From: Wigglesworthia glossinidia endosymbiont of Glossina morsitans morsitans (Yale colony)
GTDB lineage: Bacteria > Pseudomonadota > Gammaproteobacteria > Enterobacterales > Enterobacteriaceae
Length of the DNA: 32,000 nt
NCBI RefSeq assembly: GCF_000247565.1
Contig: NC_016893.1
Span: 660,001-692,000 of the forward strand
Direction of reading: 5' to 3'
Below are positions 4,246 through 27,548 of the stretch, one piece after another. The notes under the pieces were generated by a model. The model was not told the origin of the DNA. It did no database searches and saw only the letters and a list, made by a program, of their open reading frames with translations. The position numbers and the translations under genes were made by a program. Numbering within the stretch: position 1 is the stretch's first letter; every line of letters starts with the position of its first letter.

Positions 4246-5121
4246 TTAACTATATTCTTTTTTATAATCTACTGCAATAAATAAGCTAATTATCGTAATC
4301 ATAACAATAGAAAACAAAAAAATTTTTTTTCCCCAAACTATATTAAAATTCATTTCTTCAGATTTAAAACCTTGCAACGCAATAAACAACCAAATAATAT
4401 TTAAAATTATAGAAATTGTTAAATATTTATATCCTGCATACTGTTTAATGAACAATATAATTGTTGAAACAAAAAATAAAAAAATATAAAAAATAATATT
4501 TAATTTTGTTTTAAAAATTCCTTTTTTAATTGGAAAAATAGGAATAGATGCAGCTTGATAATCTTGATATCTAAAAATCGCAATTGCATAAGAATGTGGT
4601 ATTTGCCAAAATCCGAAAATACATAATAAAATTAATGCTCCTAAATCAATATAATTAGTTACTGCACAATATCCAATCATTGGAGGGGTTGCTCCAGATA
4701 GACTTCCAACTAAAATAGCATGTATAGAATATCGTTTCATTAATATACTATAAATTACTACGTAGATAAAAAAACCAAATACTGCAATCATTAAAGTTAA
4801 AAGATTAATTTTAAATAAAAAAAATATCCCAAAAAATAACAAAATATATCCATACAAACATGCAGGTTTAGGTTGAATTAATCCACGTGCTAATGCTCTA
4901 TGTTTAGTACGTTGCATTTTTTTATCTATGTCTCGATCTATATAATTATTAAGCACTGATGCTGATGCAATTATGAAAGATGTACCAAGTAAAGTATTAA
5001 ATAATAGAAAAAAATTAATTTCTCCTTGAGATGCAAGAAAAAAACAACCAGTCGTAGAAATAAGATTTCCTAAAATTATTCCTGGTTTTATAATTTGAAA
5101 ATAACTTGTTAATATATACAT
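4246..5121 (-). CDS. cyoE: Protoheme IX farnesyltransferase (heme O synthase)
   Basis: The 291-aa polytopic membrane protein aligns along its whole length with E. coli CyoE (KPGIILGNLIS, NNYIDRDIDKKMQRTKHR, GATPPMIGYCAV, WQIPHSYAIAIFRYQDYQAA). It is the last gene of the cyo cluster. Confidence 0.95.
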   Translation of the reverse strand: MYILTSYFQIIKPGIILGNLISTTGCFFLASQGEINFFLLFNTLLGTSFIIASASVLNNYIDRDIDKKMQRTKHRALARGLIQPKPACLYGYILLFFGIFFLFKINLLTLMIAVFGFFIYVVIYSILMKRYSIHAILVGSLSGATPPMIGYCAVTNYIDLGALILLCIFGFWQIPHSYAIAIFRYQDYQAASIPIFPIKKGIFKTKLNIIFYIFLFFVSTIILFIKQYAGYKYLTISIILNIIWLFIALQGFKSEEMNFNIVWGKKIFLFSIVMITIISLFIAVDYKKEYS

Positions 5122-5148
5122 TTAGTTTTTCAAAAATATTTTATAAAT

Positions 5149-5451
5149 TCACATAAAATTTTCATGCAAATGAGACATAATCCAATAAGATCCAAAAACT
5201 AAAATAAAAACAATTAAAATAGTAAATAATAAAGAAATTAATTTCCAGTTAATTTTTTCTGTATTATAAATATGTAAAAAACAAATTAATTGCACTATAG
5301 ATTGCAATATAGCACTAGATATTATGATTAAGAAAATAAAATTTTTATCAATATAATTTTTTTTTATTATTGCTAGGAAAGAAACTAATGTGAAAAAACA
5401 AGAAAGTAAAGATCCTATGATATATAACTTTTTTTTGCATAAAATTGTCAT
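5149..5451 (-). CDS. cyoD: Cytochrome bo3 ubiquinol oxidase subunit IV
   Basis: A 100-aa, three-helix hydrophobic protein sitting between cyoC and cyoE. Its ATG overlaps the cyoC TGA by 4 nt (ATGA), and an AGGAG lies 7 nt upstream. Confidence 0.85.
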   Translation of the reverse strand: MTILCKKKLYIIGSLLSCFFTLVSFLAIIKKNYIDKNFIFLIIISSAILQSIVQLICFLHIYNTEKINWKLISLLFTILIVFILVFGSYWIMSHLHENFM

Positions 5452-6068
5452 ATAATTACTCCTAATAAATATACTATATTAAATACAAAAATCCAAATTA
5501 CGTCTAAAAAATGCCAAAATAAACTTAATAATTTTAAACGTGTCTTATATATGATGGTATATCCATTACGATAAGTTTGCATAATAAGAATTATCATCCA
5601 TAGTATCCCTGATACTACATGTATTCCATGAGTTCCAACAAGTGTAAAAAATATAGATAAAAATGCGCTTTTTTCTGGACCATAATTATGATGAATTAAT
5701 TGATAAAATTCTTGTAGCTCAAGAGCAACAAAAAATATTCCTAATAAAACAGTGATAAATAACCAAAAATTAATCCAATTTTTATTAGGTATTGATAGTG
5801 ATGCTATCCCGCAAGTAATACTGCTAGACAATAAAATTATTGTTTCTAAAAAAACCATATTTATTTCGAATATGTCTTTTCCTGAAGGACCTCCTGCAAT
5901 ATTATTTTTCAAAACAAAATAAGTGGCGAATAGAGTTGCAAATAAAATGCAATCACTCATTAAATATACCCAAAATCCCAGAATTTTTATTCTCTGGCTA
6001 TGTTCTTCACAATGCAACGGATTATGTTCATTTTGGGTTTTAGAACAGCAAAATGAATTAATTAACAT
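5448..6068 (-). CDS. cyoC: Cytochrome bo3 ubiquinol oxidase subunit III
   Basis: A 206-aa membrane protein at the CyoC position with CyoC-like motifs (LGFWVYLMSDCILFATLFATY, FFTLVGTHGIHV, WHFLDVIWIF). Confidence 0.95.
   Translation of the reverse strand: MLINSFCCSKTQNEHNPLHCEEHSQRIKILGFWVYLMSDCILFATLFATYFVLKNNIAGGPSGKDIFEINMVFLETIILLSSSITCGIASLSIPNKNWINFWLFITVLLGIFFVALELQEFYQLIHHNYGPEKSAFLSIFFTLVGTHGIHVVSGILWMIILIMQTYRNGYTIIYKTRLKLLSLFWHFLDVIWIFVFNIVYLLGVII
5459..5463 (-). promoter_or_regulatory. Shine-Dalgarno AGGAG of cyoD (inside the end of cyoC)
   Basis: The reverse complement reads AGGAGTAATTAT-ATG with a 7-nt spacer. Together with the ATGA stop/start overlap this suggests translational coupling. 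Confidence 0.5.
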
Positions 6069-6075
6069 GATTTAT

Positions 6076-6080
6076 TCCTT
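6076..6080 (-). promoter_or_regulatory. Shine-Dalgarno-like AAGGA of cyoC
   Basis: The reverse complement reads AAGGAATAAATC-ATG with a 7-nt spacer, located in the 20-nt cyoB-cyoC gap. Confidence 0.45.
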
Positions 6081-6088
6081 GTAATTTG

Positions 6089-8053
6089 CTACTTTATTGC
6101 TTTATTATTTTCGATATCATATATAGTTTTCACAGGAATATAATAATCTTTATTTTTTTGAAAACTATCGAATATCCATATCATTATTACTCCAAATATT
6201 CCAAAAATCGACATCCACCATATGTGCCATACCATAGCAAATCCAAATATTAAAGAAAAAATGGAAATAAAAATTCCAGAACTAGTATTTTTGGGCATAT
6301 GAATTGGATCATATGATATCTGATAATTTTTTTTGCTTTTTTCTTTTTTTATAAACCAAAATGCATCTCTAACATTGCATTCACTTGGAATAATTGCAAA
6401 ATTGTAAAGTGGAGGTGGTGATTTAGTAGACCATTCTAACGTTCTTCCATTCCAGGGATCACCTGTAATATCACGATATTTATGCTTGTTTTTTATGCTA
6501 ATTAATAATTGTATTATTTGGCAAATAATACCTAATGCAATCAATATAGTTCCTAATGCAGCAATAGATAAGGGTATATGAAATTCTGAATCAATGTTTT
6601 GACTTAAACGTCTTGTCATTCCCATAAATCCTAAAACGTAAAGAGGCATAAAAGCAATGTAAAAACCGATTATCCAAAACCAAAAGGCTCTCTTTCCCCA
6701 AGTTTCATTTAAAGTAAATCCGAAAGCTTTTGGAAACCAATATGTCATACCTGCAAAGCATCCAAATACCACTCCTCCTATAATAACATTATGAAAGTGA
6801 CCTATTAAAAATAAGCTATTATGTAGCACATAATCGGCTCCTGGTACTGATAATAAGACTCCGGTCATGCCTCCAATGGAAAATGTAATTATAAATCCTA
6901 TTGTCCATAACATGGATGAGTGAAATTTTATTTTGCCTTTATAAATTGTAAAAATCCAATTAAATACTTTTACGCCTGTAGGAATAGCAATAATCATTGT
7001 CATAATTCCAAAGAATGAATTTACATCGGACCCAGATCCCATAGTAAAAAAATGATGTAACCATACACAAAAAGAAAGTAATGTAATTGCAATTGTAGCC
7101 CAAACTAAAGAATTATATCCAAACAAGCTTTTTTTAGAAAAAGTAGATACAATTTCAGAAAAAATTCCAAAAACAGGTAGTACTAAAATGTATACTTCTG
7201 GATGGCCCCATGCCCAAAACAAATTAATATACATCATCATATTTCCACCCATATCGTTAGTAAAAAAATGAGTATTTAAATAACGATCTAAAGTGAGTAA
7301 AAATATTGTCACAGTTAAAATTGGAAAAGCAGCAATTATGAGAATGTTAGTGCAAAATGAAGTCCAAGTAAATACTGGCATTTTCATCATTGACATGTTA
7401 GGCGCTCTCATACGTAAAATTGTAACAAAAAAATTAATTCCTGTTAAAGTCGTACCAATTCCAGAAATTTGAATACTCCAGATCCAATAATCTACCCCAA
7501 CACCTGGACTGTATTGAATTTCTGATAACGGCGGATATGCTGTCCAGCCTGTTTGCGCAAACTCTCCTATACCTAGTGATAAATTAATAAGAACTACTCC
7601 GACCATAAATAACCAAAAACTTAAAGAATTTAAAAAAGGAAATGCAACATCTCTAGCACCAATTTGAAGAGGTACAATTAAATTCATTAATCCTACTATA
7701 AAAGGAGTAGCCATAAAAATAATCATAATCACACCATGAGCAGTTATAATTTGATCATAGTGATGAGGAGGTAAAAAACCTGATTGACCAGAAGAAACAA
7801 TTGCTTGATGGGCGCGCATCATAACTGCATCTGCAAATCCTCTGAACATCATAACAAACGCCATTATTATGTACATAATACCGATTTTTTTATGATCTAC
7901 TGAGGTTAACCATTCACTCCAAAGATATGTCCATTTTTTATGATAAGTAATTATGGAAATTAATCCTAAAATGACTAAAAAAATAATAAAAACTGTTACC
8001 ATTACGATGGGTTCTTGATAAGGAATTGAATTAAAATTTAATTTTCCCAACAT
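6089..8053 (-). CDS. cyoB: Cytochrome bo3 ubiquinol oxidase subunit I
   Basis: A 654-aa heme-copper oxidase subunit I with WFFGHPEVY-type motif ([14 protein letters not shown]), HHFFTMG, and HFHNVIIGG. Collinear with E. coli CyoB. Confidence 0.98.
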
Positions 8054-8095
8054 AATTTTTATCCTATATTAACTAATGTGTATAATTTTTTTGTT

Positions 8096-8965
8096 TTAAT
8101 TATAAATATTATGAGAATGTTTAAATTGATTGACTACATCATCAAATAAATTCGGTTTTACTCGAGAAAAATGTTCTATTGGATGATTAATACTAGGATG
8201 AGCAAGAATTTGATATTCTTGCATATTTTCAAGTTTTTTAGAAGACTTTTGAATGTTTTTTATCCAAGTATCAAATTCGTTTTTATCAGATAATGAAATA
8301 GCGATAAACTTCATTTCGGAAAAACCTGGCCCACTAAAATTGGCAGATATTCCTTTATATTTTCCTGTTTCATTAGATACAAGATGTAAAATTGAATTCA
8401 TTCCTGCCATAGCATAAATTTGTCCGCCTAATTGAGGAATGAAGAAAGAATTCATTACAGAACTAGAGGTAATATTAAATTTTATCGGGACATTTTTTGG
8501 AAATGCAATTTCGTTAACTGTGGCAATATTATAATCTGGATAAATAAAAAGCCATTTCCAATCTAGAGAAATTACTTGTATATTGAGGGTAGAATTTAAA
8601 GATTGAATTTCTTTTTTAGGATCTAAAGAATGCGTTGAGTTCCAAGTAATTGTTGCTAAAAAAATAATAGCAAATATTGGAACACCCCAAATTATATATT
8701 CAATTTTTTTAGAATGTTGCCAATTTGGTAAGTATATTGACCGTGTATTAGATTCACGATATTTAAAGACAAATACAATCGTCATGATAATTACTGGCAA
8801 TACTATGCCGAGCATAAGAAATATGGCGATTAATATAAGTTTTTTCTCTTCTAATCCAATCAATCCTTGAGGATTCATCAAAGTTATATTTTTACAGCTA
8901 TTTAAAAAAAATAAAATGCATACTAAAATAGTATTTTTTAATTTTTTTATGTTATTTTTTATCAT
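8096..8965 (-). CDS. cyoA: Cytochrome bo3 ubiquinol oxidase subunit II (lipoprotein)
   Basis: 289 aa with a lipobox-like FLNSC, two TM helices, and a conserved quinol-oxidase domain (VNEIAFPKNVPIKFNITSSSVMNSFFIPQLGGQIYAMAGM). It lacks the C-terminal His/Met-rich tail of E. coli CyoA. Confidence 0.95.
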   Translation of the reverse strand: MIKNNIKKLKNTILVCILFFLNSCKNITLMNPQGLIGLEEKKLILIAIFLMLGIVLPVIIMTIVFVFKYRESNTRSIYLPNWQHSKKIEYIIWGVPIFAIIFLATITWNSTHSLDPKKEIQSLNSTLNIQVISLDWKWLFIYPDYNIATVNEIAFPKNVPIKFNITSSSVMNSFFIPQLGGQIYAMAGMNSILHLVSNETGKYKGISANFSGPGFSEMKFIAISLSDKNEFDTWIKNIQKSSKKLENMQEYQILAHPSINHPIEHFSRVKPNLFDDVVNQFKHSHNIYN

Positions 8966-9300
8966 ATTTAAATAGCCTTTATAAAATTGTATCGTATATT
9001 ATATACTATCTGTAGTCAGAATAAATTTACATAAATTTTTTTATTCCATAAAAAAATTAATCTTATTTTTAAAATAATAAAATTTTCAAGCAAACAAACT
9101 AATTTGAGTTGAATAAATTATACACTATATTTTTTTATGAATTAATCCAGATATATATTATTTTTTATAAATTTGAAACATATATCTTATATTACTAAAA
9201 TAAATAAAATTTAGTAAAAGTTTTAATAATTATATATTAATTATAATAATTTTAGATAAATTTTATAAAAATTAATTTATTTTTTTTGAAAAATAATCTT

Positions 9301-10185
9301 ATGAAAATAACTATTTTAGGATGTGGTGTAATAGGAAAAATTTGGATCGCACATTTTATGAAAAAAAAATATTTCGTGCAAGGATGGTTGAAAAAAAATA
9401 AAAAATTTTTAAAATTTACATTAGTTTCTATTTTCAATGAATACAAAAAATATGAAATATATTCAAATGATGTTTATCACTTACAAAAAAGTGATATTTT
9501 GCTTGTAACTTTAAAAGCATGGCAAACCATACAAGCAATAAAAAAAGTTTTACCAAAATTAAAAAAAAATTGTGCTATTGTAATTATCCAAAATGGTATA
9601 GGAATTCAGGAACAATTAAAAAAAATCCAACAACCACTATTTTTTGGAATCACTACACATTCTGGATATTTAAAAAATCATATCACTTACCATACTCACT
9701 ATGGCGCTACGTATATTGGACCGGGCAATAAATCAAAGTATTTTTATAAATCAACTTTATTTATTTTAAACGATATATTGCCAAAAGTAATTTGGAAAAA
9801 AAATATTTTATATTTTATTTGGTTAAAATTAGCTGTTAATTGCGTGATTAATCCATTAAGTGTAATTTATAATTGTAAGAATGGAGACTTATTAAAATAT
9901 AAGTCAGATATATATATTCTATCATATGAAATAGCATTAATTATGCAACTAAATGGATTTTATATAGATAAAGATGTTTTATTCAAATATATTTTAGGTG
10001 TTATATATATAACAAAAAATAATGTTTCTTCTATGTTACAAGATTTCATTTTTAATAAAAAATCTGAAATTGATTATATTAACGGATATATTGTATATTC
10101 TAGTATGAAATTTGGAGTTCGAGTACCATATAACAAATATATTTTTGAACTTATTAAAGAAAAAGAAAAAATTTATTTAAAATAA
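9301..10185 (+). CDS. panE: 2-dehydropantoate 2-reductase (ketopantoate reductase)
   Basis: MKITILGCGVIGKIW aligns with the E. coli PanE N-terminus MKITVLGCGALGQLW. Also conserved are LLVTLKAWQ, KLAVNCVINPL, SSMLQD and EIDYINGY. The ORF-track start at 9286 is a TTG 5 codons upstream; the ATG at 9301 matches the ortholog N-terminus. Confidence 0.93.
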   Translation: MKITILGCGVIGKIWIAHFMKKKYFVQGWLKKNKKFLKFTLVSIFNEYKKYEIYSNDVYHLQKSDILLVTLKAWQTIQAIKKVLPKLKKNCAIVIIQNGIGIQEQLKKIQQPLFFGITTHSGYLKNHITYHTHYGATYIGPGNKSKYFYKSTLFILNDILPKVIWKKNILYFIWLKLAVNCVINPLSVIYNCKNGDLLKYKSDIYILSYEIALIMQLNGFYIDKDVLFKYILGVIYITKNNVSSMLQDFIFNKKSEIDYINGYIVYSSMKFGVRVPYNKYIFELIKEKEKIYLK

Positions 10186-10199
10186 TAATACTTATTTTT

Positions 10200-10532
10200 T
10201 TAAATAGAAACTGAAAATATTTTAATTTTTCTAAATCCTTTTTGGTATAAATATATCGCTTGTAGTCGACTCATCATTCCATAATTACAATATAATACAT
10301 AAGATTTATTTTTATCTAAATTTAAAAAATTTTTATGTATTTCAAAATAAGGAAAGTTACTGACAGAAATATCCTTTAATTTTAAAGGACGCTTGTTACT
10401 TTCCATTGAATCACGAATATCTAAAACAATATCTGACTTATTTAATTTTGTAAAATCATTAATTTCTTGAAAATATGGTATTTCAGCGATTAATTTAGAA
10501 TTTTTAACTTTTTTTATTTTTTTATTTTGCAT
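10200..10532 (-). CDS. thiI: Stand-alone rhodanese-domain protein derived from the C-terminus of ThiI (no THUMP or PP-loop ATPase part)
   Basis: The 110-aa ORF aligns to the last ~95 residues of E. coli ThiI. DIVLDIRDSMESNKRPLKLKDISVSNFPYFEIHKNFLNLDKNKSYVLYCNYGMMSRLQAIYLYQKGF corresponds to [67 protein letters not shown]. The active-site Cys is kept (LYCNYG). It sits between panE and ispA-dxs, where thiI lies in E. coli. Confidence 0.8.
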   Translation of the reverse strand: MQNKKIKKVKNSKLIAEIPYFQEINDFTKLNKSDIVLDIRDSMESNKRPLKLKDISVSNFPYFEIHKNFLNLDKNKSYVLYCNYGMMSRLQAIYLYQKGFRKIKIFSVSI

Positions 10533-10776
10533 TTTATTAAGTAAACTTTCATATTTTTATTAACTTATTAATAAACGAATGAAATCTTTTATTTTAAATT
10601 GTTATAATTTTATAAAATAGATCGTGTATAATCTAGTAAATTATAGTATATATTTTTTTATAATCAAGTATTATATGTTTTATATACATAAGTTCATTTT
10701 AATATTATTTTAAATAATTCAATTTATTTACATGATATGATCAATTTTTTCGATATTCACTATAGTAAATATTAAA

Positions 10777-11679
10777 ATGACTAATTTTTTGATTTCTTTA
10801 AAAGAATGTCAAACACATATTAATAAAATATTAAAAAAATATTTATATTGTTTTTCTAAAAATAAAACTCAACTTACTTTAGCTATGGAATATGGATTAT
10901 GCAATGGAGGTAAAAGATTAAGAGCATTTTTAGTTTATCAAGTAGGAGCACTATTTAAAATTCCTAAAAAAAATTTAGATAATATTGCCGCTGCAATTGA
11001 ATGCATACATGCATATTCTTTAATTCATGATGATTTACCGGCGATGGATAATGGAGATTTACGTCGAGGATTACCTTCCTGTCATGTAAAATATGGAGAA
11101 TATTTAGCGATTTTAGCTGGAGATGCACTTCAAACTTTAGCATTTCATATATTATCTAGTATTGATATGCCGGACGTATCTCTTTTAAAGAGAATAAAAA
11201 TTATATCTATTTTAGCAAATGCAATTGGCGGAAATGGCATGTGCTTAGGGCAATCGTTAGATTTAGAAACACAAGGTTTGCCGATATCTATAAAAAAATT
11301 AAAAACAATACATAAAAATAAAACTGGTGCATTAATTTATGCAGCACTCAACATGACAATTTTAGCCGGGAATATATGTGATAAAAAAATTACTTATGAT
11401 CTCAAAAAATATGCTCAATTAATAGGTTTAGCGTTTCAAATACAAGATGATATTTTGAATATCATTGGTACCGCTCAAAAAACTGGAAAACGTCAAGGAT
11501 CGGATAAAAAATCACATAAAAACACTTATTCAAGTCTATTAGGTTTAAAAAAAGCCCAAAAAAAAGCACTAAATTTATATAAACAAGCCTTAATTACTTT
11601 AGAATATATGAATAAATTAGGTTATAATACTAAATCATTAATAGCATTAGCGCACTATTTTATAATACGCGATCAATGA
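10777..11679 (+). CDS. ispA: Farnesyl diphosphate synthase
   Basis: 300 aa with the first Asp-rich motif IHDDLPAMDNGDLRRG and the second FQIQDDILN. GGKRLR, KTGAL and the rest are collinear with E. coli IspA. It lies directly upstream of dxs, as in E. coli. Confidence 0.95.
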   Translation: MTNFLISLKECQTHINKILKKYLYCFSKNKTQLTLAMEYGLCNGGKRLRAFLVYQVGALFKIPKKNLDNIAAAIECIHAYSLIHDDLPAMDNGDLRRGLPSCHVKYGEYLAILAGDALQTLAFHILSSIDMPDVSLLKRIKIISILANAIGGNGMCLGQSLDLETQGLPISIKKLKTIHKNKTGALIYAALNMTILAGNICDKKITYDLKKYAQLIGLAFQIQDDILNIIGTAQKTGKRQGSDKKSHKNTYSSLLGLKKAQKKALNLYKQALITLEYMNKLGYNTKSLIALAHYFIIRDQ

Positions 11680-11697
11680 TCAAGAATATGTTATACT

Positions 11698-13581
11698 ATG
11701 AATAGTACAGTAAATATGAATAACATTAAATATTCAATTTTAAAAAAAATCAATAATCCTAAATCATTAAGAAAATTACCACAAAAAAAACTAAAATTTC
11801 TATGTCAGGAGCTCAGAGATTTTTTGCTTGACAGTGTAAGCTATTCTAGTGGTCATTTTGCTTCAGGTTTAGGAGTCATCGAACTTACAGTAGCGCTACA
11901 TTATGTTTATAATACTCCAATAGATTATTTGATTTGGGACGTCGGGCACCAAGCTTATCCTCATAAAATTATAACTGGTCGTAGAGATCAAATTACAAGT
12001 ATTCGAAAAAAAAATGGATTACATCCTTTTCCATTTCGAGAAGAAAGCAAATACGATGTATTATCTGTTGGACATTCTTCTACATCAATTAGTGCTGGAT
12101 TGGGAATTGCGGTTACCGCAGAAAAAGAAAATAAAAATCGACATGTAGTATGCGTAATTGGAGACGGGGCAATCACTGCGGGTATGGCATTTGAAGCTAT
12201 GAATCATGCAGGAGATATTAGATCTAATTTATTAATTATTTTGAATGATAATTCAATGTCGATTTCAGAAAATGTGGGAGCATTGCATAAACAAAACTCG
12301 AATTATTTTTTAACTAATAATATCTTATCTATATTAAAAAAAAATAGTCAAAAAATTTTTAACAAAATTCCTAAATTTAAGCAATTCATAAAAAAAATAG
12401 GGTTAAATTTAAACAAAATTTTTTCTAATGAAACGTTATTTGAAAAATTAGGATTTAAATATTTTGGTCCTTATGATGGACATAACATAACATCATTAAT
12501 AACTATATTAAAAAAATTACGTGTCACTCATGGACCTAAGTTGTTACATATTCTGACACAAAAAGGAAAAGGATATGCTCCTGCAGAAAAAGATCCAATT
12601 AGATGGCATGCCGTACCAAAGTTTAATTTGAAAATTGGCATACCTCCGAACAAAAATAATTCTATACAAACTTATTCTACAATTTTTGGAAATTGGCTTT
12701 GTGATACAGCAAAAAAAGACAAAAAATTAATTGCTATCACCCCGGCTATGAAAGAAGGGTCTGGGTTAGTAAAATTTTCTAAAAAATATCCCCATCAATA
12801 TTTTGATGTTGCTATTGCTGAACAACACGCAGTCACTTTTGCCGCAGGATTAGCAATTGGTGGATATAAACCTATTGTTGCTATTTATTCTACATTTTTA
12901 CAAAGAGCTTATGATCAAATTATTCATGATGTTGCTATTCAAAATTTATCAGTATTGTTTGCTATTGATCGCGCAGGAATAGTTGGTCCTGATGGACCCA
13001 CACATCAAGGTGCGTTAGACTTATCTTATTTACGCTGTATTCCAAATATGATTATTATGACTCCTAGTGATGAAAATGAATGTCGTTTAATGTTATATAC
13101 AGGTTACCATCAATCTGGGCCTACTGCAGTAAGGTATCCAAAAGGATGTGGAATAGGAGTGAAGTTTACAAAACTTTATCATATTCCTGTAGGCAAAGGA
13201 GTAATTTTAAGAAAAGGAAAAAATATAGCAATATTAAATTTTGGTACATTATTAGTTCAAGCAAATACTGTTGCTCATGAATTAGATGCTACTTTGATAG
13301 ATATGCGATTCGTTAAACCTATCGATAAAATACTTTTAAAGAAAGTAGCGATCAATCATCAAGCTTTAATTACTCTAGAAGAAAACGTTATCATGGGAGG
13401 AGCAGGTAGTGCGGTAAACGAATTTTTAATGTACCAAAAAATACTGATTCCTGTTTTAAACATTGGCTTGCCAGATTATTTCATATCGCAAGGTAGCCAG
13501 CAAGAAATAAGATCATCTCTAGGACTAGATAGCCAAGGTATTAGAAAAAAAATAGAAAATTGGTTAAACCAAAATTTTTAA
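11698..13581 (+). CDS. dxs: 1-deoxy-D-xylulose-5-phosphate synthase
   Basis: 627 aa, near-collinear with E. coli Dxs ([71 protein letters not shown]). An alternative ATG at 11716 is possible. Confidence 0.97.
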
Positions 13582-15470: not shown

Positions 15471-15582
15471 GTGATTTTTAAAAAAAATACTATTTCAATA
15501 GTAACATCATATGAACATGCAAAATTATATTTATTATGATAAATTATGTTATAAAAGAACTACTTTATCATTATTTAAATTC

Positions 15583-15587
15583 AGGAA
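15583..15587 (+). promoter_or_regulatory. Shine-Dalgarno-like AGGAA upstream of the proposed zapE start
   Basis: The sequence tcAGGAAtatcATG places an ATG at 15592, the start that best aligns with the E. coli ZapE N-terminus. Confidence 0.45.
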
Positions 15588-15591
15588 TATC

Positions 15592-16699
15592 ATGCTTACA
15601 AATTCTTTATTCATAATATATCGCAATATAGTTCGTAAAAAAAATTATCATTTAGATAAATCCCAATATGATGTAATTTTACATTTAGATCAAATTTATA
15701 AAACTTTTATGCCAAAAAATAATAATTTAAAAAACAGTAGTATTATGTTTTTCAAAAGAGTTTTATTTAAATTATTTAATAAAAAAAAAACTACACAATT
15801 TATATATCTGGGGTGGTGTAGGAAGAGGGAAAACCTGGTTGATGAATTTATTTTACCAATCAGTACCAACTAATAGAAAAATGAGAATTCATTTTCATGA
15901 ATTTATGATAAAAATACATAAAGATATGTATATACTGCAAGGAAAAAAAAATCCATTAAAAATTGTAGCAAAAAATTTCAAAAATAAAGTAGACATTATA
16001 TGTTTTGATGAATTTTTTATTTCAGACATTGCAGATGCAATGCTACTAGGAAATTTAATTAAATACTTTTTAAAAGTAAACATATTATTAATCATAACAT
16101 CAAATTTTCCACCATGTGATTTATACAAAGATGGTTTGCAAAGATCACAATTTTTACCAACTATTGAATTAATTTACAAATATTATACTATACTAAATCT
16201 GGATTCTGGAGTAGATTATCGTTTGTTAAATGTGCATATTTCTAAATTTTGGTTATATCCGATTAATGAAAAGAATATAAATAAAATGAAAAAACTTTTT
16301 TTTAAATTTATTGGAAATAAAAATAATTTTAAAAAAAATGTAAATATTGAAATTAATCATAGAAAAATTAAAACTTTATGGTTATCAAATAAAATATCAG
16401 CATTTAATTTTAAAGATCTATGCATATCATCTTGCAGTCAAAATGATTATATTGTAATTGCGCAAAAATTTGCTATTATTTTTCTATATAACGTAATTCA
16501 AATTGATAATAGTCAGGAAGATGTTGGCAAAAGATTTTTATTTTTAATAGATGCATTATATGCAAATCGAGTGAAATTAATTACTATATCATCTGTATGC
16601 ATATCACAAATATATAATGGTGATTTATTAAAATTTGAATATAATAGATGTATTTCAAGACTGTATGAAATGCAAAGCGAAAAATATTTTGTGCTTTAA
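15592..16699 (+). pseudogene. zapE: Cell-division AAA+ ATPase ZapE (YhcM), interrupted by a 1-nt frameshift in an A10 tract; may still be expressed through slippage
   Basis: Two ORFs (15511..15873 and 15839..16699) together cover E. coli ZapE. The N-part ends ...FNKKKTTQF. The second frame is open from 15731 and reads KKKLHNLYIWGGVGRGKTWLMNLFYQSVP, matching E. coli RGLYMWGGVGRGKTWLMDLFYQSLP. Walker A (GGVGRGKT) and Walker B (ICFDEFFISD) are intact downstream. Removing one A from the tract at 15781-15790 gives one continuous reading frame of about 368 aa. Confidence 0.88.
15781..15790 (+). repeat. Poly(A)10 homopolymer at the zapE frameshift site
   Basis: Ten consecutive A (t at 15780, c at 15791). 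The frame changes across this tract. Confidence 0.95.
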
Positions 16700-22540: not shown

Positions 22541-23980
22541 TTAAACACGTAACACACGACTTGTATTAGTTTTTCCAACAGTACCCATCACATCACCTTG
22601 GGTGATTACTACAAAATCTCCAGAAACTAAAAATCCTTTTTGTTTTAATAAATTAATAGCGGAGTTCGCGGCATTAATACCTTTTTCATTATTGTTGAAA
22701 TATACCGGTGTTACTCCTTTATATAAAGCCGTTAAATTTAAAGTGCATTCATGCTTAGAAAGCGCAAAAATAGGTAATTCTGAACTAATTCGAGACATAA
22801 TAAGAGGTGTTTTTCCAGATTCAGTAAGTGATATAATTGCACGTATACCTTGTAAATGGTTTGCTACATACATAGCAGACATTGCCATAGATTCTTCGAC
22901 AGATCGAAATTGCATATTTTCTCTATATTTTAAAGTATTATTATTAGAAATTTTTTCTGCTCCTATACAAACATTTGCCATAGATATTACTGTTTCTATT
23001 GGATATTTCCCAATTGCAGTTTCGGCTGATAACATTACTGCATCTGTTCCATCTAATACTGCATTAGCAACATCCATGACTTCTGCACGTGTTGGCATTG
23101 GGTTATTAATCATAGATTCCATCATTTGCGTTGCAGTGATTACTGCGCGATTTAAATTATGTGCTCTTTGTATTAATTTTTTTTGTATTCCAACTAATTC
23201 TGGATCACCAATTTCTATTCCTAAATCGCCTCTTGCAACCATTATCGCATCGGAAGCTATAATAATTTCATCTATTATATCATTATTTGCTACAGCCTCT
23301 GCACGTTCAATTTTTGAAATAATTTTTGCATGACTATTTAATTTTTTTAACAAATTTTTAGCGTATTTTAAATCTTCTCCTGTTCGAGGAAATGAAACAG
23401 CTAAATAGTCAATTCCCATTTTAGTAGCATATATGATGTCCTGCTTATCTTTTTGTGTGAGTGTCTTTGCAGATAAACCGCCACCTAATTTATTAATGCC
23501 TTTGTTGTTACATAAGTAACCTCCAATACGTACTGTAGTGTAAATTTTTTGATTTAAAATTTTTTTTACTTCTAATTGTATACGTCCATCATCTAATAAT
23601 AATATATCTCCTGGAATTACGTCTTGAGGTAATTTTTTATAATCAATTCCTACACTCGAATTTGTGCCAAGATCTTTTGTTAAAGATGCATCTAATATAA
23701 ATTGTTTACCTGGAGATAAAAATGTTTTTCCTTTTTGAAAGCTTGAAATACGAATTTTAGGTCCTTGTAAATCACCAAGAATAGCAATATTTTTACCTAA
23801 TTTATGTGAAATTTTTCTTACTGCCTTTGTTCTCCTAGAATGATCAGAAAAATTTCCATGAGAAAAATTCATACGCACTATATTAGCGCCTGATAATATC
23901 ATTTTTTCTAGATTATTATTTAGATCTGTAGCTGGACCCAAAGTAGTAACTATTTTTGTTCTTCTAATTTTTATAGACAT
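22541..23980 (-). CDS. pykA: Pyruvate kinase II
   Basis: 479 aa, collinear with E. coli PykA ([89 protein letters not shown]). Confidence 0.97.
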
Positions 23981-26181: not shown

Positions 26182-27548
26182 ATGATAATACCAATATATT
26201 TTAATCAAAAAAAATATCAAAAATATTTAATTGAACTACCTAAAATCAAACAATTTTCAAAAAATATAAGAACAATATATAATTCGCAAGATTTTTTTAA
26301 TTTACTTATAAAAAAAATTTCTGAAGCAAAAAAATTAATTTACCTAGCCGTATTATATTTAGAAAAAGATCAATCAGGTTTGCAAATATTAAAAACAATA
26401 TATCAAGCAAAAAAAAACAACCCTAATTTAGAAGTTGCAATCTTAGTAGATTGGTATAGAGCTCACAGAACAATTTTAGGTAAAAAACAAGGTATAACGA
26501 ATGCTGATTGGTATTCTGATATGGCGACTATATATAAAAATATTAATGTACCAATTTATGGAATCCCTGTAAATCTTAATGAAGCATTAGGAGTATTGCA
26601 TCTTAAAGGATTTATTGTTGATAATTATGTATTTTATAGTGGTGCAAGTATTAGTAATGCATATTTAAATCAATTTAATAAAAAATGCCGTCATGATAGA
26701 TATCAAATGATTTGCAATGACGCTTTAGCTAATTCCATGTTAAATTTTATTCAATCAAAATTATTAATTGAAAGTTCAATGCTTTTAAACAATTATAAAC
26801 CATATAAAAAAAAAAATTTTTTATTAGACGTTACTCGAGAGTATTACGTAAAAAATTGAAATCTAGCCAGTATCATTACGACACTGATCTATGCCATAAT
26901 CAACTTTCTATTGCACCAATCTTAGGATTAGGTAAAAATAATTTGTTAAATCGCGTGATACATAATCTCGTATGTGCTACAAAGTATAAATTAATTTTAT
27001 GTACGCCATACTTTAATTTATTTCCTTTGTTAATTAAAGATATATCAAAGATTTTAAGTTTACATAAAACCGTGGAAATTATTGTTGGTGATAAAATTGC
27101 AAATGATTTTTATACTTCAAACAAACATACATTCAAAATTATCAGTATAATACCGTATTTGTATGAAATTAACTTAAGAAATTTTATGAAAAATTATCAA
27201 AATTATATAGACGATGGAAATTTAATTATTAAATTATGGAAAAATAAAAATAATAGTTTTCACATTAAAGGTATCTGGGTTGATGAAATATGGATGTTAT
27301 TAACTGGAAATAATTTTAATGCACGAGCATGGGCGTTAGATTTAGAAAATGCAATTTTAATACACGATCCAAAACAAGAAATTTATATTCAACGTAAAAA
27401 AGAACTATCTTATATTTGCAAGCATACAAAAAGAATAAAAAATTTTCGAGAAATTGAAAAAATTTCTGATTATCCTGCAAAAGTGCAAAGAATTATTCGA
27501 AATATTAAAGTGATACATTTCGATCGATTAATTAAAAAAATATTATAA
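26182..27548 (+). pseudogene. pssA: CDP-diacylglycerol--serine O-phosphatidyltransferase (phosphatidylserine synthase), split by a frameshift in an A11 tract; probably still functional through slippage
   Basis: ORFs 26182..26859 and 26856..27548 cover the N- and C-halves of E. coli PssA. The first HKD motif (HLKGFIVD) is in part 1 and the second (HIKGIWVD) in part 2. The second frame is open from 26808 and reads KKKFFIRRYSRVLRKKLKSSQYHY..NQLSIAPILGLGKNN, matching E. coli ..IRLFRQELRDAAYHF..DQLSVTPLVGLGKSS. One extra A (or two fewer) in the tract at 26806-26816 fuses the frames into a protein of about 455 aa. Confidence 0.9.
26806..26816 (+). repeat. Poly(A)11 homopolymer (followed by T6) at the pssA frameshift site
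   Basis: Eleven consecutive A counted directly (cat at AAAAAAAAAAA tttttt). The frame changes across it. Confidence 0.95.

Follow-up and report, generated by a model that had tools for sequence, protein, structure and literature searches.

A stand-alone ThiI-type rhodanese gene at the thiI locus of Wigglesworthia, a probable sulfur donor for thiazole synthesis

We analysed 32,000 nucleotides of the chromosome of Wigglesworthia glossinidia, the endosymbiont of Glossina morsitans morsitans (hereafter W. morsitans; NC_016893.1, positions 660,001 to 692,000 of the forward strand; this whole stretch is called the window, and coordinates are given within it), and in particular a 110-amino-acid open reading frame (ORF) at 10200-10532 on the minus strand. 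This ORF is probably an in-situ remnant of thiI that acts as a stand-alone rhodanese sulfur donor for thiazole synthesis. The identity of its domain, its catalytic cysteine, its orthologous position, the absence of the other ThiI domains at the locus and purifying selection across the genus are direct observations. That thiI of W. morsitans is rhodanese-only is already known, both in the literature and from the name that RefSeq gives the protein on the basis of a dedicated NCBIfam model; the additions made here are modest, namely an unannotated copy in W. brevipalpis and evidence of convergent truncation at the same locus, which adds to the three cases listed by Rihova et al. (2023; PMC10654098).

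Domain content and position of the ORF

The ORF product is identical to RefSeq WP_041944133.1 ('thiazole biosynthesis protein [Wigglesworthia glossinidia]'). Rhodanese (PF00581) is the sole Pfam domain above threshold (27.5 bits, cutoff 22.2), and the NCBIfam model TIGR04271 (ThiI_C_thiazole) matches at 95.9 bits (curated cutoff 70) over profile positions 14-99 of 101. In BLASTP, residues 407-480 of E. coli K-12 ThiI align without gaps with residues 33-106 of the ORF (42% identity, 74% positives, E 2e-22), a register that places Cys82 (LYCNYG) on the catalytic Cys456 of E. coli ThiI (LWCERG); by tblastn, ThiI residues 397-480 match 10215-10466, the lone ThiI match in the window once a chance hit described below is set aside. 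All four Wigglesworthia orthologues, and the stand-alone homologues of other symbionts, keep this cysteine unchanged. The features of the locus are the following:

10200-10532, minus strand: stand-alone ThiI-type rhodanese gene, ATG start, 110 amino acids, from the ORF listing
10287-10289, minus strand: codon of Cys82, the predicted persulfide-carrying cysteine, in the motif C-x-x-G-x-M-S, from the BLASTP register and a reading of the sequence
10215-10472, minus strand: conserved rhodanese core, residues 21-106, corresponding to about residues 397-480 of E. coli ThiI, from the TIGR04271 stretch 21-106
10473-10532, minus strand: Lys-rich N-terminal tail, residues 1-20, from the alignment of the four orthologues and a predicted local distance difference test score (pLDDT) below 50 for residues 1-15
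10533-10776, no strand: AT-rich divergent spacer of 244 nucleotides from the rhodanese gene to ispA, with stops in all six frames
9301-10185, plus strand: panE (2-dehydropantoate 2-reductase), convergent neighbour and synteny anchor, a 294-amino-acid NCBI protein with Pfam ApbA/ApbA_C
10777-11679, plus strand: ispA (farnesyl diphosphate synthase), divergent neighbour and synteny anchor, NF007877 at 359.8 bits, cutoff 321
11698-13581, plus strand: dxs (1-deoxy-D-xylulose 5-phosphate (DXP) synthase), source of DXP for thiazole synthase and synteny anchor, a 627-amino-acid ORF

Other rhodanese models fit far less well: the GlpE family (NF001195) scored 15.3 bits against a cutoff of 102, the TrhO, MoeB/MoeZ and SelU-type NCBIfam models all stayed far under their cutoffs, and no PspE or YgaP model matched at E<=1. 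With TIGR04271 above its cutoff and these models far below theirs, a better fit to a different rhodanese family (GlpE, PspE or YgaP had been named in an earlier note on this DNA) is refuted. An AlphaFold model, built from a three-sequence alignment only, shows a beta-alpha rhodanese-like topology (mean pLDDT 71.4, predicted template modelling score (pTM) 0.63), and its top fold matches in the Protein Data Bank (PDB) are the single-domain rhodaneses 3gk5 and GlpE 1gmx (template modelling scores 0.55-0.64, of moderate confidence). Model and matches agree with the presence of one complete rhodanese domain; since the sequence and fold matches in the PDB were generic rhodaneses only, with no ThiI rhodanese structure among them, structure cannot discriminate the subfamily.

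The order panE(+)/thiI'(-)/ispA(+)/dxs(+) is the mirror of dxs(-) ispA(-) xseB(-) thiI(+) yajL(-) panE(-) in E. coli K-12 (NC_000913), and the ORF thus lies at the thiI locus, in the thiI orientation, between the sites of panE/yajL and of xseB-ispA-dxs. The remaining 3' end of thiI faces panE, as expected from a 5' deletion that also took xseB; yajL is gone from this locus as well. In E. coli, the place of the spacer is taken by xseB and by the 5' part of thiI, about 1.2 kb that encode the THUMP and PP-loop domains. Even at E<=100, tblastn found no match to ThiI, XseB or YajL in the spacer, nor any to XseB or YajL elsewhere in the window, and hmmscan of the six spacer frames found no Pfam domain at E<=10, THUMP and the ThiI PP-loop included. 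Neither a THUMP or N-terminal ferredoxin-like domain nor a PP-loop adenylation domain (SGGxDS) with Cys344 was present in the ORF, the spacer or the rest of the window. A weak tblastn match of ThiI residues 233-376 at 23261-23659(-) (E 0.41) falls inside pyruvate kinase (635 bits) and was dismissed as chance. Rio et al. (2012) described thiI of W. morsitans as carrying a '1 or 2 indel' frameshift; in our comparison the part homologous to ThiI has no frameshift, and upstream of it no other frame resembles ThiI.

The ORF starts at a point corresponding to about ThiI residue 375-397, and the common core of the four Wigglesworthia proteins begins at about residue 20. The N-terminal tail that precedes it is weakly conserved, predicted to be disordered, missing from the W. 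brevipalpis orthologue (which lacks the first ~19 residues) and without detectable similarity to ThiI, and its sequence may have been recruited to provide the start codon. From the letters alone, the earlier note had proposed the 110-amino-acid minus-strand ORF, its alignment solely with the C-terminal rhodanese domain of ThiI, the retained persulfide cysteine, an expected PF00581-only domain content, the E. coli-like gene order panE, thiI, ispA, dxs, the 244-nucleotide non-coding AT-rich gap to ispA and the deletion of the THUMP and PP-loop domains together with xseB; each of these was reproduced by the searches above.

Loss of the THUMP and PP-loop domains implies that the tRNA 4-thiouridine (s4U8) function of ThiI has probably been lost. 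As s4U8 is a near-UV sensor, such a loss is plausible in an intracellular symbiont. It is extremely unlikely that thiI was instead split rather than truncated, its THUMP/PP-loop part surviving elsewhere as in the Bacillus type, with s4U8 synthesis kept. Many other bacteria have a ThiI that lacks the rhodanese domain, and the free-living Haemophilus and Porticoccaceae with stand-alone TIGR04271 proteins (see below) might have split genes; our own searches covered the 32-kb window and found no such part in it. For the rest of the chromosome, the RefSeq-based gene table of W. morsitans (Bing et al., 2017; PMC5489720) has no entry under 'thiI', 'sulfurtransferase', 'thiouridine' or 'THUMP', so it names no full-length thiI. 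Belda et al. (2010), who searched W. brevipalpis by TBLASTN with the E. coli protein, obtained no match.

Conservation, expression and a role in thiazole synthesis

Orthologues are present in three further Wigglesworthia lineages. At the same locus, the Logan assembly SRR14633898 (L003) has a 110-amino-acid protein of 85% identity and MAG-1, a metagenome-assembled genome (MAG; JAVBJL010000009; L002/L004), a 106-amino-acid protein of 72% identity. In W. brevipalpis (BA000021.3; L005), where no gene is annotated between panE and ispA, tblastn and the ORF listing revealed an intact 100-amino-acid ORF at 8883-9185(-) with 54-55% identity and the motif LYCNNGMMS. The three score 93.3, 106 and, for W. 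brevipalpis, 102.3 bits on TIGR04271. Across the six pairs of the four lineages, the ratio of nonsynonymous to synonymous divergence (dN/dS, Nei-Gojobori) is 0.18-0.60 for the rhodanese ORF, at dS values of 0.2 to about 1.2; in the same lineages it is 0.17-0.30 for panE, 0.15-0.35 for ispA, 0.12-0.18 for cyoA and 0.06-0.15 for dxs. Judged by these ratios, purifying selection on the ORF is moderate and clearly present. A frame of about 100 codons kept open in DNA of ~18% GC, in four diverged lineages and with its motif intact, reflects neither a chance ORF nor neutral survival.

Transcription of the ORF, and the presence and expression of its pathway partners, are established from published data. 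Bing et al. (2017; PMC5489720) give, in their Table S5, bacteriome RNA-seq values for the RefSeq genes of NC_016893, and there the unnamed ('NA') gene_650 (WIGMOR_RS03210), as the sole gene between panE (gene_649) and ispA (gene_651), is this ORF by position. It received 2230 reads, or 834 reads per kilobase per million mapped reads (RPKM), beside an RPKM of 179 for panE, 1035 for ispA and 1216 for dxs (WIGMOR_RS03220). According to the same table, thiC, thiE, thiF/moeB, thiS, thiG and thiH (genes 251-256), thiD and iscS are all present and expressed in W. morsitans, so that IscS, ThiF, ThiS, ThiG and ThiH co-occur with the ORF in one genome; iscS is also retained according to Medina Munoz et al. 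(2017). Symbiotic bacteriomes had a 9.65-fold higher level of thiamin monophosphate than bacteriomes cured of the symbiont (PMC5489720).

We judge it very unlikely that the ORF is a dead remnant of thiI, a pseudogene that has not yet decayed. Rio et al. (2012) placed thiI of W. morsitans among 11 pseudogenes, on the ground that it is truncated by 50% or more, although they stated that it is transcribed and that such genes might still work. The missing name in the transcriptome table (PMC5489720) and a dN/dS that reaches 0.5-0.6 against W. brevipalpis would suit a pseudogene, whereas the frame has stayed open in four lineages separated by dS of ~0.2 to >1, in ~18% GC DNA in which stops arise easily and beside a spacer with stops in every frame; the catalytic cysteine and the CxxGxMS motif are invariant, the four orthologues score 93-106 bits on TIGR04271, the transcript level resembles those of ispA and dxs, and the same remnant has been kept independently in other reduced symbionts. 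Truncation by more than 50% is a poor criterion of pseudogenes where genes have several domains.

We propose that a deletion removed about 1.2 kb from the 5' end of thiI (THUMP and PP-loop, the tRNA s4U8 synthetase) together with xseB and left a self-standing rhodanese domain of ~90 residues, which acquired a start codon of its own. On the model of the E. coli and Salmonella pathway, IscS would load cysteine-derived sulfur as a persulfide on Cys82, which would then attack the C-terminal acyl-adenylate of ThiS made by ThiF and so yield ThiS-thiocarboxylate. From this, DXP (product of the adjacent dxs) and dehydroglycine, ThiG and ThiH would form thiazole phosphate, which ThiE would join with hydroxymethylpyrimidine diphosphate (HMP-PP) to give thiamin monophosphate, supplied to the fly by the symbiont. 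The gene of W. morsitans once labelled a pseudogene is thus most likely a working minimal sulfur donor for vitamin B1, and thiamine provisioning is a core service of the symbiont to the tsetse fly and to the co-resident Sodalis. The result leaves the current understanding of ThiI and of the tsetse symbiosis unchanged.

Rhodanese domains are promiscuous sulfur carriers, and the stand-alone protein could work in another sulfur relay (of a thio-cofactor, tRNA thiolation or persulfide handling), thiazole sulfur coming by a different route. ThiI-independent routes of thiazole sulfur are known in Salmonella, as papers citing that work relate, and Rhodococcus and Micrococcus, which have no ThiI rhodanese domain, produce thiamine all the same (PMC10654098); one Buchnera strain keeps the same ORF near a gene of the DsrC/TusE family. 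We nevertheless regard this alternative as unlikely: the sequence is specific to the equivalog-domain family of the ThiI C-terminus and not to the GlpE, TrhO or MoeB types, Wigglesworthia has further rhodaneses (yceA/TrhO, WIGMOR_RS01045) able to fill generic roles, the domain co-occurs with a complete and highly expressed thi operon, and in Arsenophonus it is kept only by the one obligate strain that retains the thiamine pathway (Rihova et al., PMC10654098).

Several points weigh against a thiazole role for the remnant. Both the sulfur transfer and the function in thiazole synthesis are predicted by homology. The dN/dS of this short gene lies above those of its neighbours, up to 0.6 against W. 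brevipalpis, a sign of moderate constraint. For the lack of a second thiI the support is a published gene table plus a TBLASTN search from the literature, and that search missed this rhodanese ORF too. According to a citing paper, Salmonella can bypass ThiI for thiazole sulfur (Palmer et al., 2014), and the domain is thus not indispensable everywhere. For W. brevipalpis, the TBLASTN search of Belda et al. (2010) over the entire genome gave 'no signal of thiI'; these authors also reported an internal stop in thiF and no iscS, and on the basis of the absent thiI and the thiF stop they modelled Wigglesworthia as unable to make thiazole and complemented by Sodalis. If their thiF stop and lack of iscS hold, the domain would be without partners in W. 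brevipalpis; the later W. morsitans data list both genes as expressed. As far as its sequence goes, the W. brevipalpis ORF disproves the premise of an absent thiI for the domain in question.

The earlier note had read the gene as trimmed to its cofactor-synthesis module. This reading gains support from family, catalytic cysteine, synteny, conservation, expression and pathway context, with the thiazole role and the loss of s4U8 still predictions from homology; its statement that the rhodanese domain suffices in Salmonella agrees with three papers that cite the original work (PMC10654098, PMC4350177, PMC10107482).

Expression signals and other features of the window

A candidate promoter lies in the spacer between thiI' and ispA:

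10640-10667, minus strand: candidate sigma-70 promoter, TTGATT-16 nt-TATAAT, ~108 nucleotides upstream of the rhodanese ATG, from a consensus scan

It is conserved in W. morsitans, SRR14633898 and MAG-1, though not clearly in W. brevipalpis, while the remainder of the spacer diverges. Promoter-like sites in the region are not above chance (9 observed, 9.7 expected from shuffling), and the conservation across lineages is only suggestive that this -35/-10 pair drives the rhodanese gene. The scan of the region found no terminator, and no clear Shine-Dalgarno sequence precedes the rhodanese ATG.

GC content in the window is 18-34%. Its genes are lon, ppiD, cyoEDCBA(-), panE(+), the rhodanese ORF(-), ispA, dxs, degQ/P(-), zapG(-), zapE, rplM, rpsI, tadA, purL, pykA(-), pitA, pssA, murI(-), hemB(-) and pyrD. 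The panE product scores 322.5 bits on NF005087, under its 351-bit cutoff, and passes TIGR00745 (204 bits, cutoff 141.35); for dxs, the orthologous loci show DXP_synthase_N, Transket_pyr and Transketolase_C. The cyoABCDE operon (4246-8965, minus strand) is inverted relative to panE (9301-10185, plus strand), whereas E. coli has both on one strand with yajQ and yajR between them; yajQ and yajR, like yajL, are absent from the W. morsitans locus, while Arsenophonus and Buchnera keep an E. coli-like thiI'-yajR-cyoE order.

Two genes farther along appear split. The CDP-diacylglycerol-serine O-phosphatidyltransferase gene pssA is divided between ORFs at 26182-26859 and 26856-27548 (both plus strand), which cover profile positions 5-197 and 223-451, and the frame change coincides with an A11 tract at 26806-26816 followed by T6; this marks the gene as a frameshift pseudogene or, alternatively, as a candidate for transcriptional slippage that would rescue the frame, a process under discussion in endosymbionts. 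The AFG1-family ATPase gene zapE likewise seems split, into a 120-amino-acid ORF without a family match (15511-15873, plus strand) and a 286-amino-acid ORF covering ZapE positions 68-344 (15839-16699, plus strand), and the Walker A motif GGVGRGKTW lies a short way upstream in the frame of the second. Gene calls in MAG-1 (L002) and SRR14633898 (L003) also place a short ORF ahead of an AFG1 gene of reduced length, and W. brevipalpis has zapE as one 368-amino-acid gene (L005, 14267-15373), so the split may be common to the lineages on the morsitans side.

Distribution and comparison with known systems

A profile search over 1.84 billion representative proteins gave 266 matches at E<=0.001. Among the 149 best-match sequences that were retrieved, 28 are full-length ThiI (~480-510 amino acids) and 100 are of 170 amino acids or fewer. 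Some short matches are fragments or chimeric metagenome calls (P0011 and P0016 join the E. coli C-terminus to junk N-termini) and were not counted as stand-alone. Named complete examples from symbionts include an Arsenophonus MAG (CP132901, 95 amino acids), 'Ca. Erwinia haradaeae', Pantoea sp. SoEX, 'Ca. Pantoea edessiphila', a Sodalis-like symbiont of Drepanosiphum and one Buchnera aphidicola strain (CP135030). Stand-alone TIGR04271-type proteins of 87-100 amino acids are also common in free-living Haemophilus parainfluenzae and marine Porticoccaceae (P0275, P0288, P0294; contigs <=2.76 Mb), so that the architecture extends beyond reduced symbionts. Every tested example scored above the TIGR04271 cutoff (89-106 bits).

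In three of the four symbiont genomes examined for context, the rhodanese gene lies beside dxs: thiL-pgpA-dxs-ispA-[rhd]-yajR-cyoE in Arsenophonus, dxs-[rhd]-yajR-tusE-cyoE in Buchnera and dxs-[rhd]-obg in the Sodalis-like symbiont, where [rhd] stands for the rhodanese gene; in E. haradaeae it has been relocated or its neighbours have been lost. The ancestral position in three further symbiont genomes points to repeated, independent in-situ truncations of the 5' end. Trimming at this site is seen in Wigglesworthia, Arsenophonus, Buchnera and the Sodalis-like symbiont; Erwinia haradaeae has the trimmed gene in another setting, and Pantoea symbionts of stinkbugs carry it as well. On present evidence there is an even chance that reduction of thiI to its rhodanese module is a recurrent, selection-maintained form of domain-level genome reduction in gammaproteobacterial insect symbionts, reached by independent in-situ 5' deletions at the dxs-proximal locus and genus-wide in Wigglesworthia. 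The W. brevipalpis copy removes one of the two arguments behind the no-thiazole model of Belda et al. (2010), and its recurrence at one locus in several unrelated reduced symbionts makes the remnant a useful marker of the capacity for thiazole synthesis. In Buchnera aphidicola CP135030.1 (L007, a 541-kb genome), an 87-amino-acid ThiI rhodanese lies at 5001-5264(+), near a DsrC/TusE-family gene. If this strain is without the thiazole pathway, the domain may serve a different sulfur relay there, and another relay is a possibility in any lineage that lacks the pathway.

Among known systems, GlpE, PspE and YgaP resemble the Wigglesworthia protein in size, in fold (GlpE 1gmx is among the structural matches) and in the cysteine of the active-site loop, but the protein does not belong to their families. 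The C-terminal rhodanese of E. coli and Salmonella ThiI (~404-482) is of the same TIGR04271 family and has the same catalytic cysteine, CxxGxMSRLQ motif, locus, orientation and partners (IscS, ThiF, ThiS, ThiG and ThiH); the Wigglesworthia protein differs from E. coli ThiI in being a free, unfused polypeptide of 110 amino acids with a non-homologous Lys-rich tail, 42% identity and an extremely AT-biased composition.

Closer in architecture are two other reduced symbionts that make thiamine and likewise keep the rhodanese part alone, Arsenophonus of Ornithoica turdi and 'Ca. Pantoea carbekii' (BMSBPS_0563). According to Rihova et al. (2023; PMC10654098), the Arsenophonus gene spans 288 bp, the P. 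carbekii case goes back to Kenyon et al. (2015), and the rhodanese-only thiI of W. morsitans is credited to Snyder, McLain and Rio (2012). These remnants differ from that of Wigglesworthia in belonging to independent lineages with deletions of their own, and the P. carbekii protein was identified as generic PF00581 rather than by locus. The Arsenophonus MAG CP132901 (599 kb) carries a 95-amino-acid (288-bp) ORF beside ispA-dxs, which matches the Ornithoica turdi fragment in length and may be from that strain.

Identical in domain content is the rhodanese-only ThiI of Salmonella enterica (Martinez-Gomez, Palmer, Vivas, Roach and Downs, 2011, J Bacteriol 193:4582), in which, as cited in PMC10654098, PMC4350177 and PMC10107482, the rhodanese domain is necessary and sufficient for thiazole synthesis. 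The Salmonella construct, as the citing papers present it, is a laboratory truncation with demonstrated activity, whereas the Wigglesworthia protein is a natural truncation whose activity is predicted, and the Wigglesworthia ORF is in this sense a natural counterpart of the Salmonella domain-dissection experiment.

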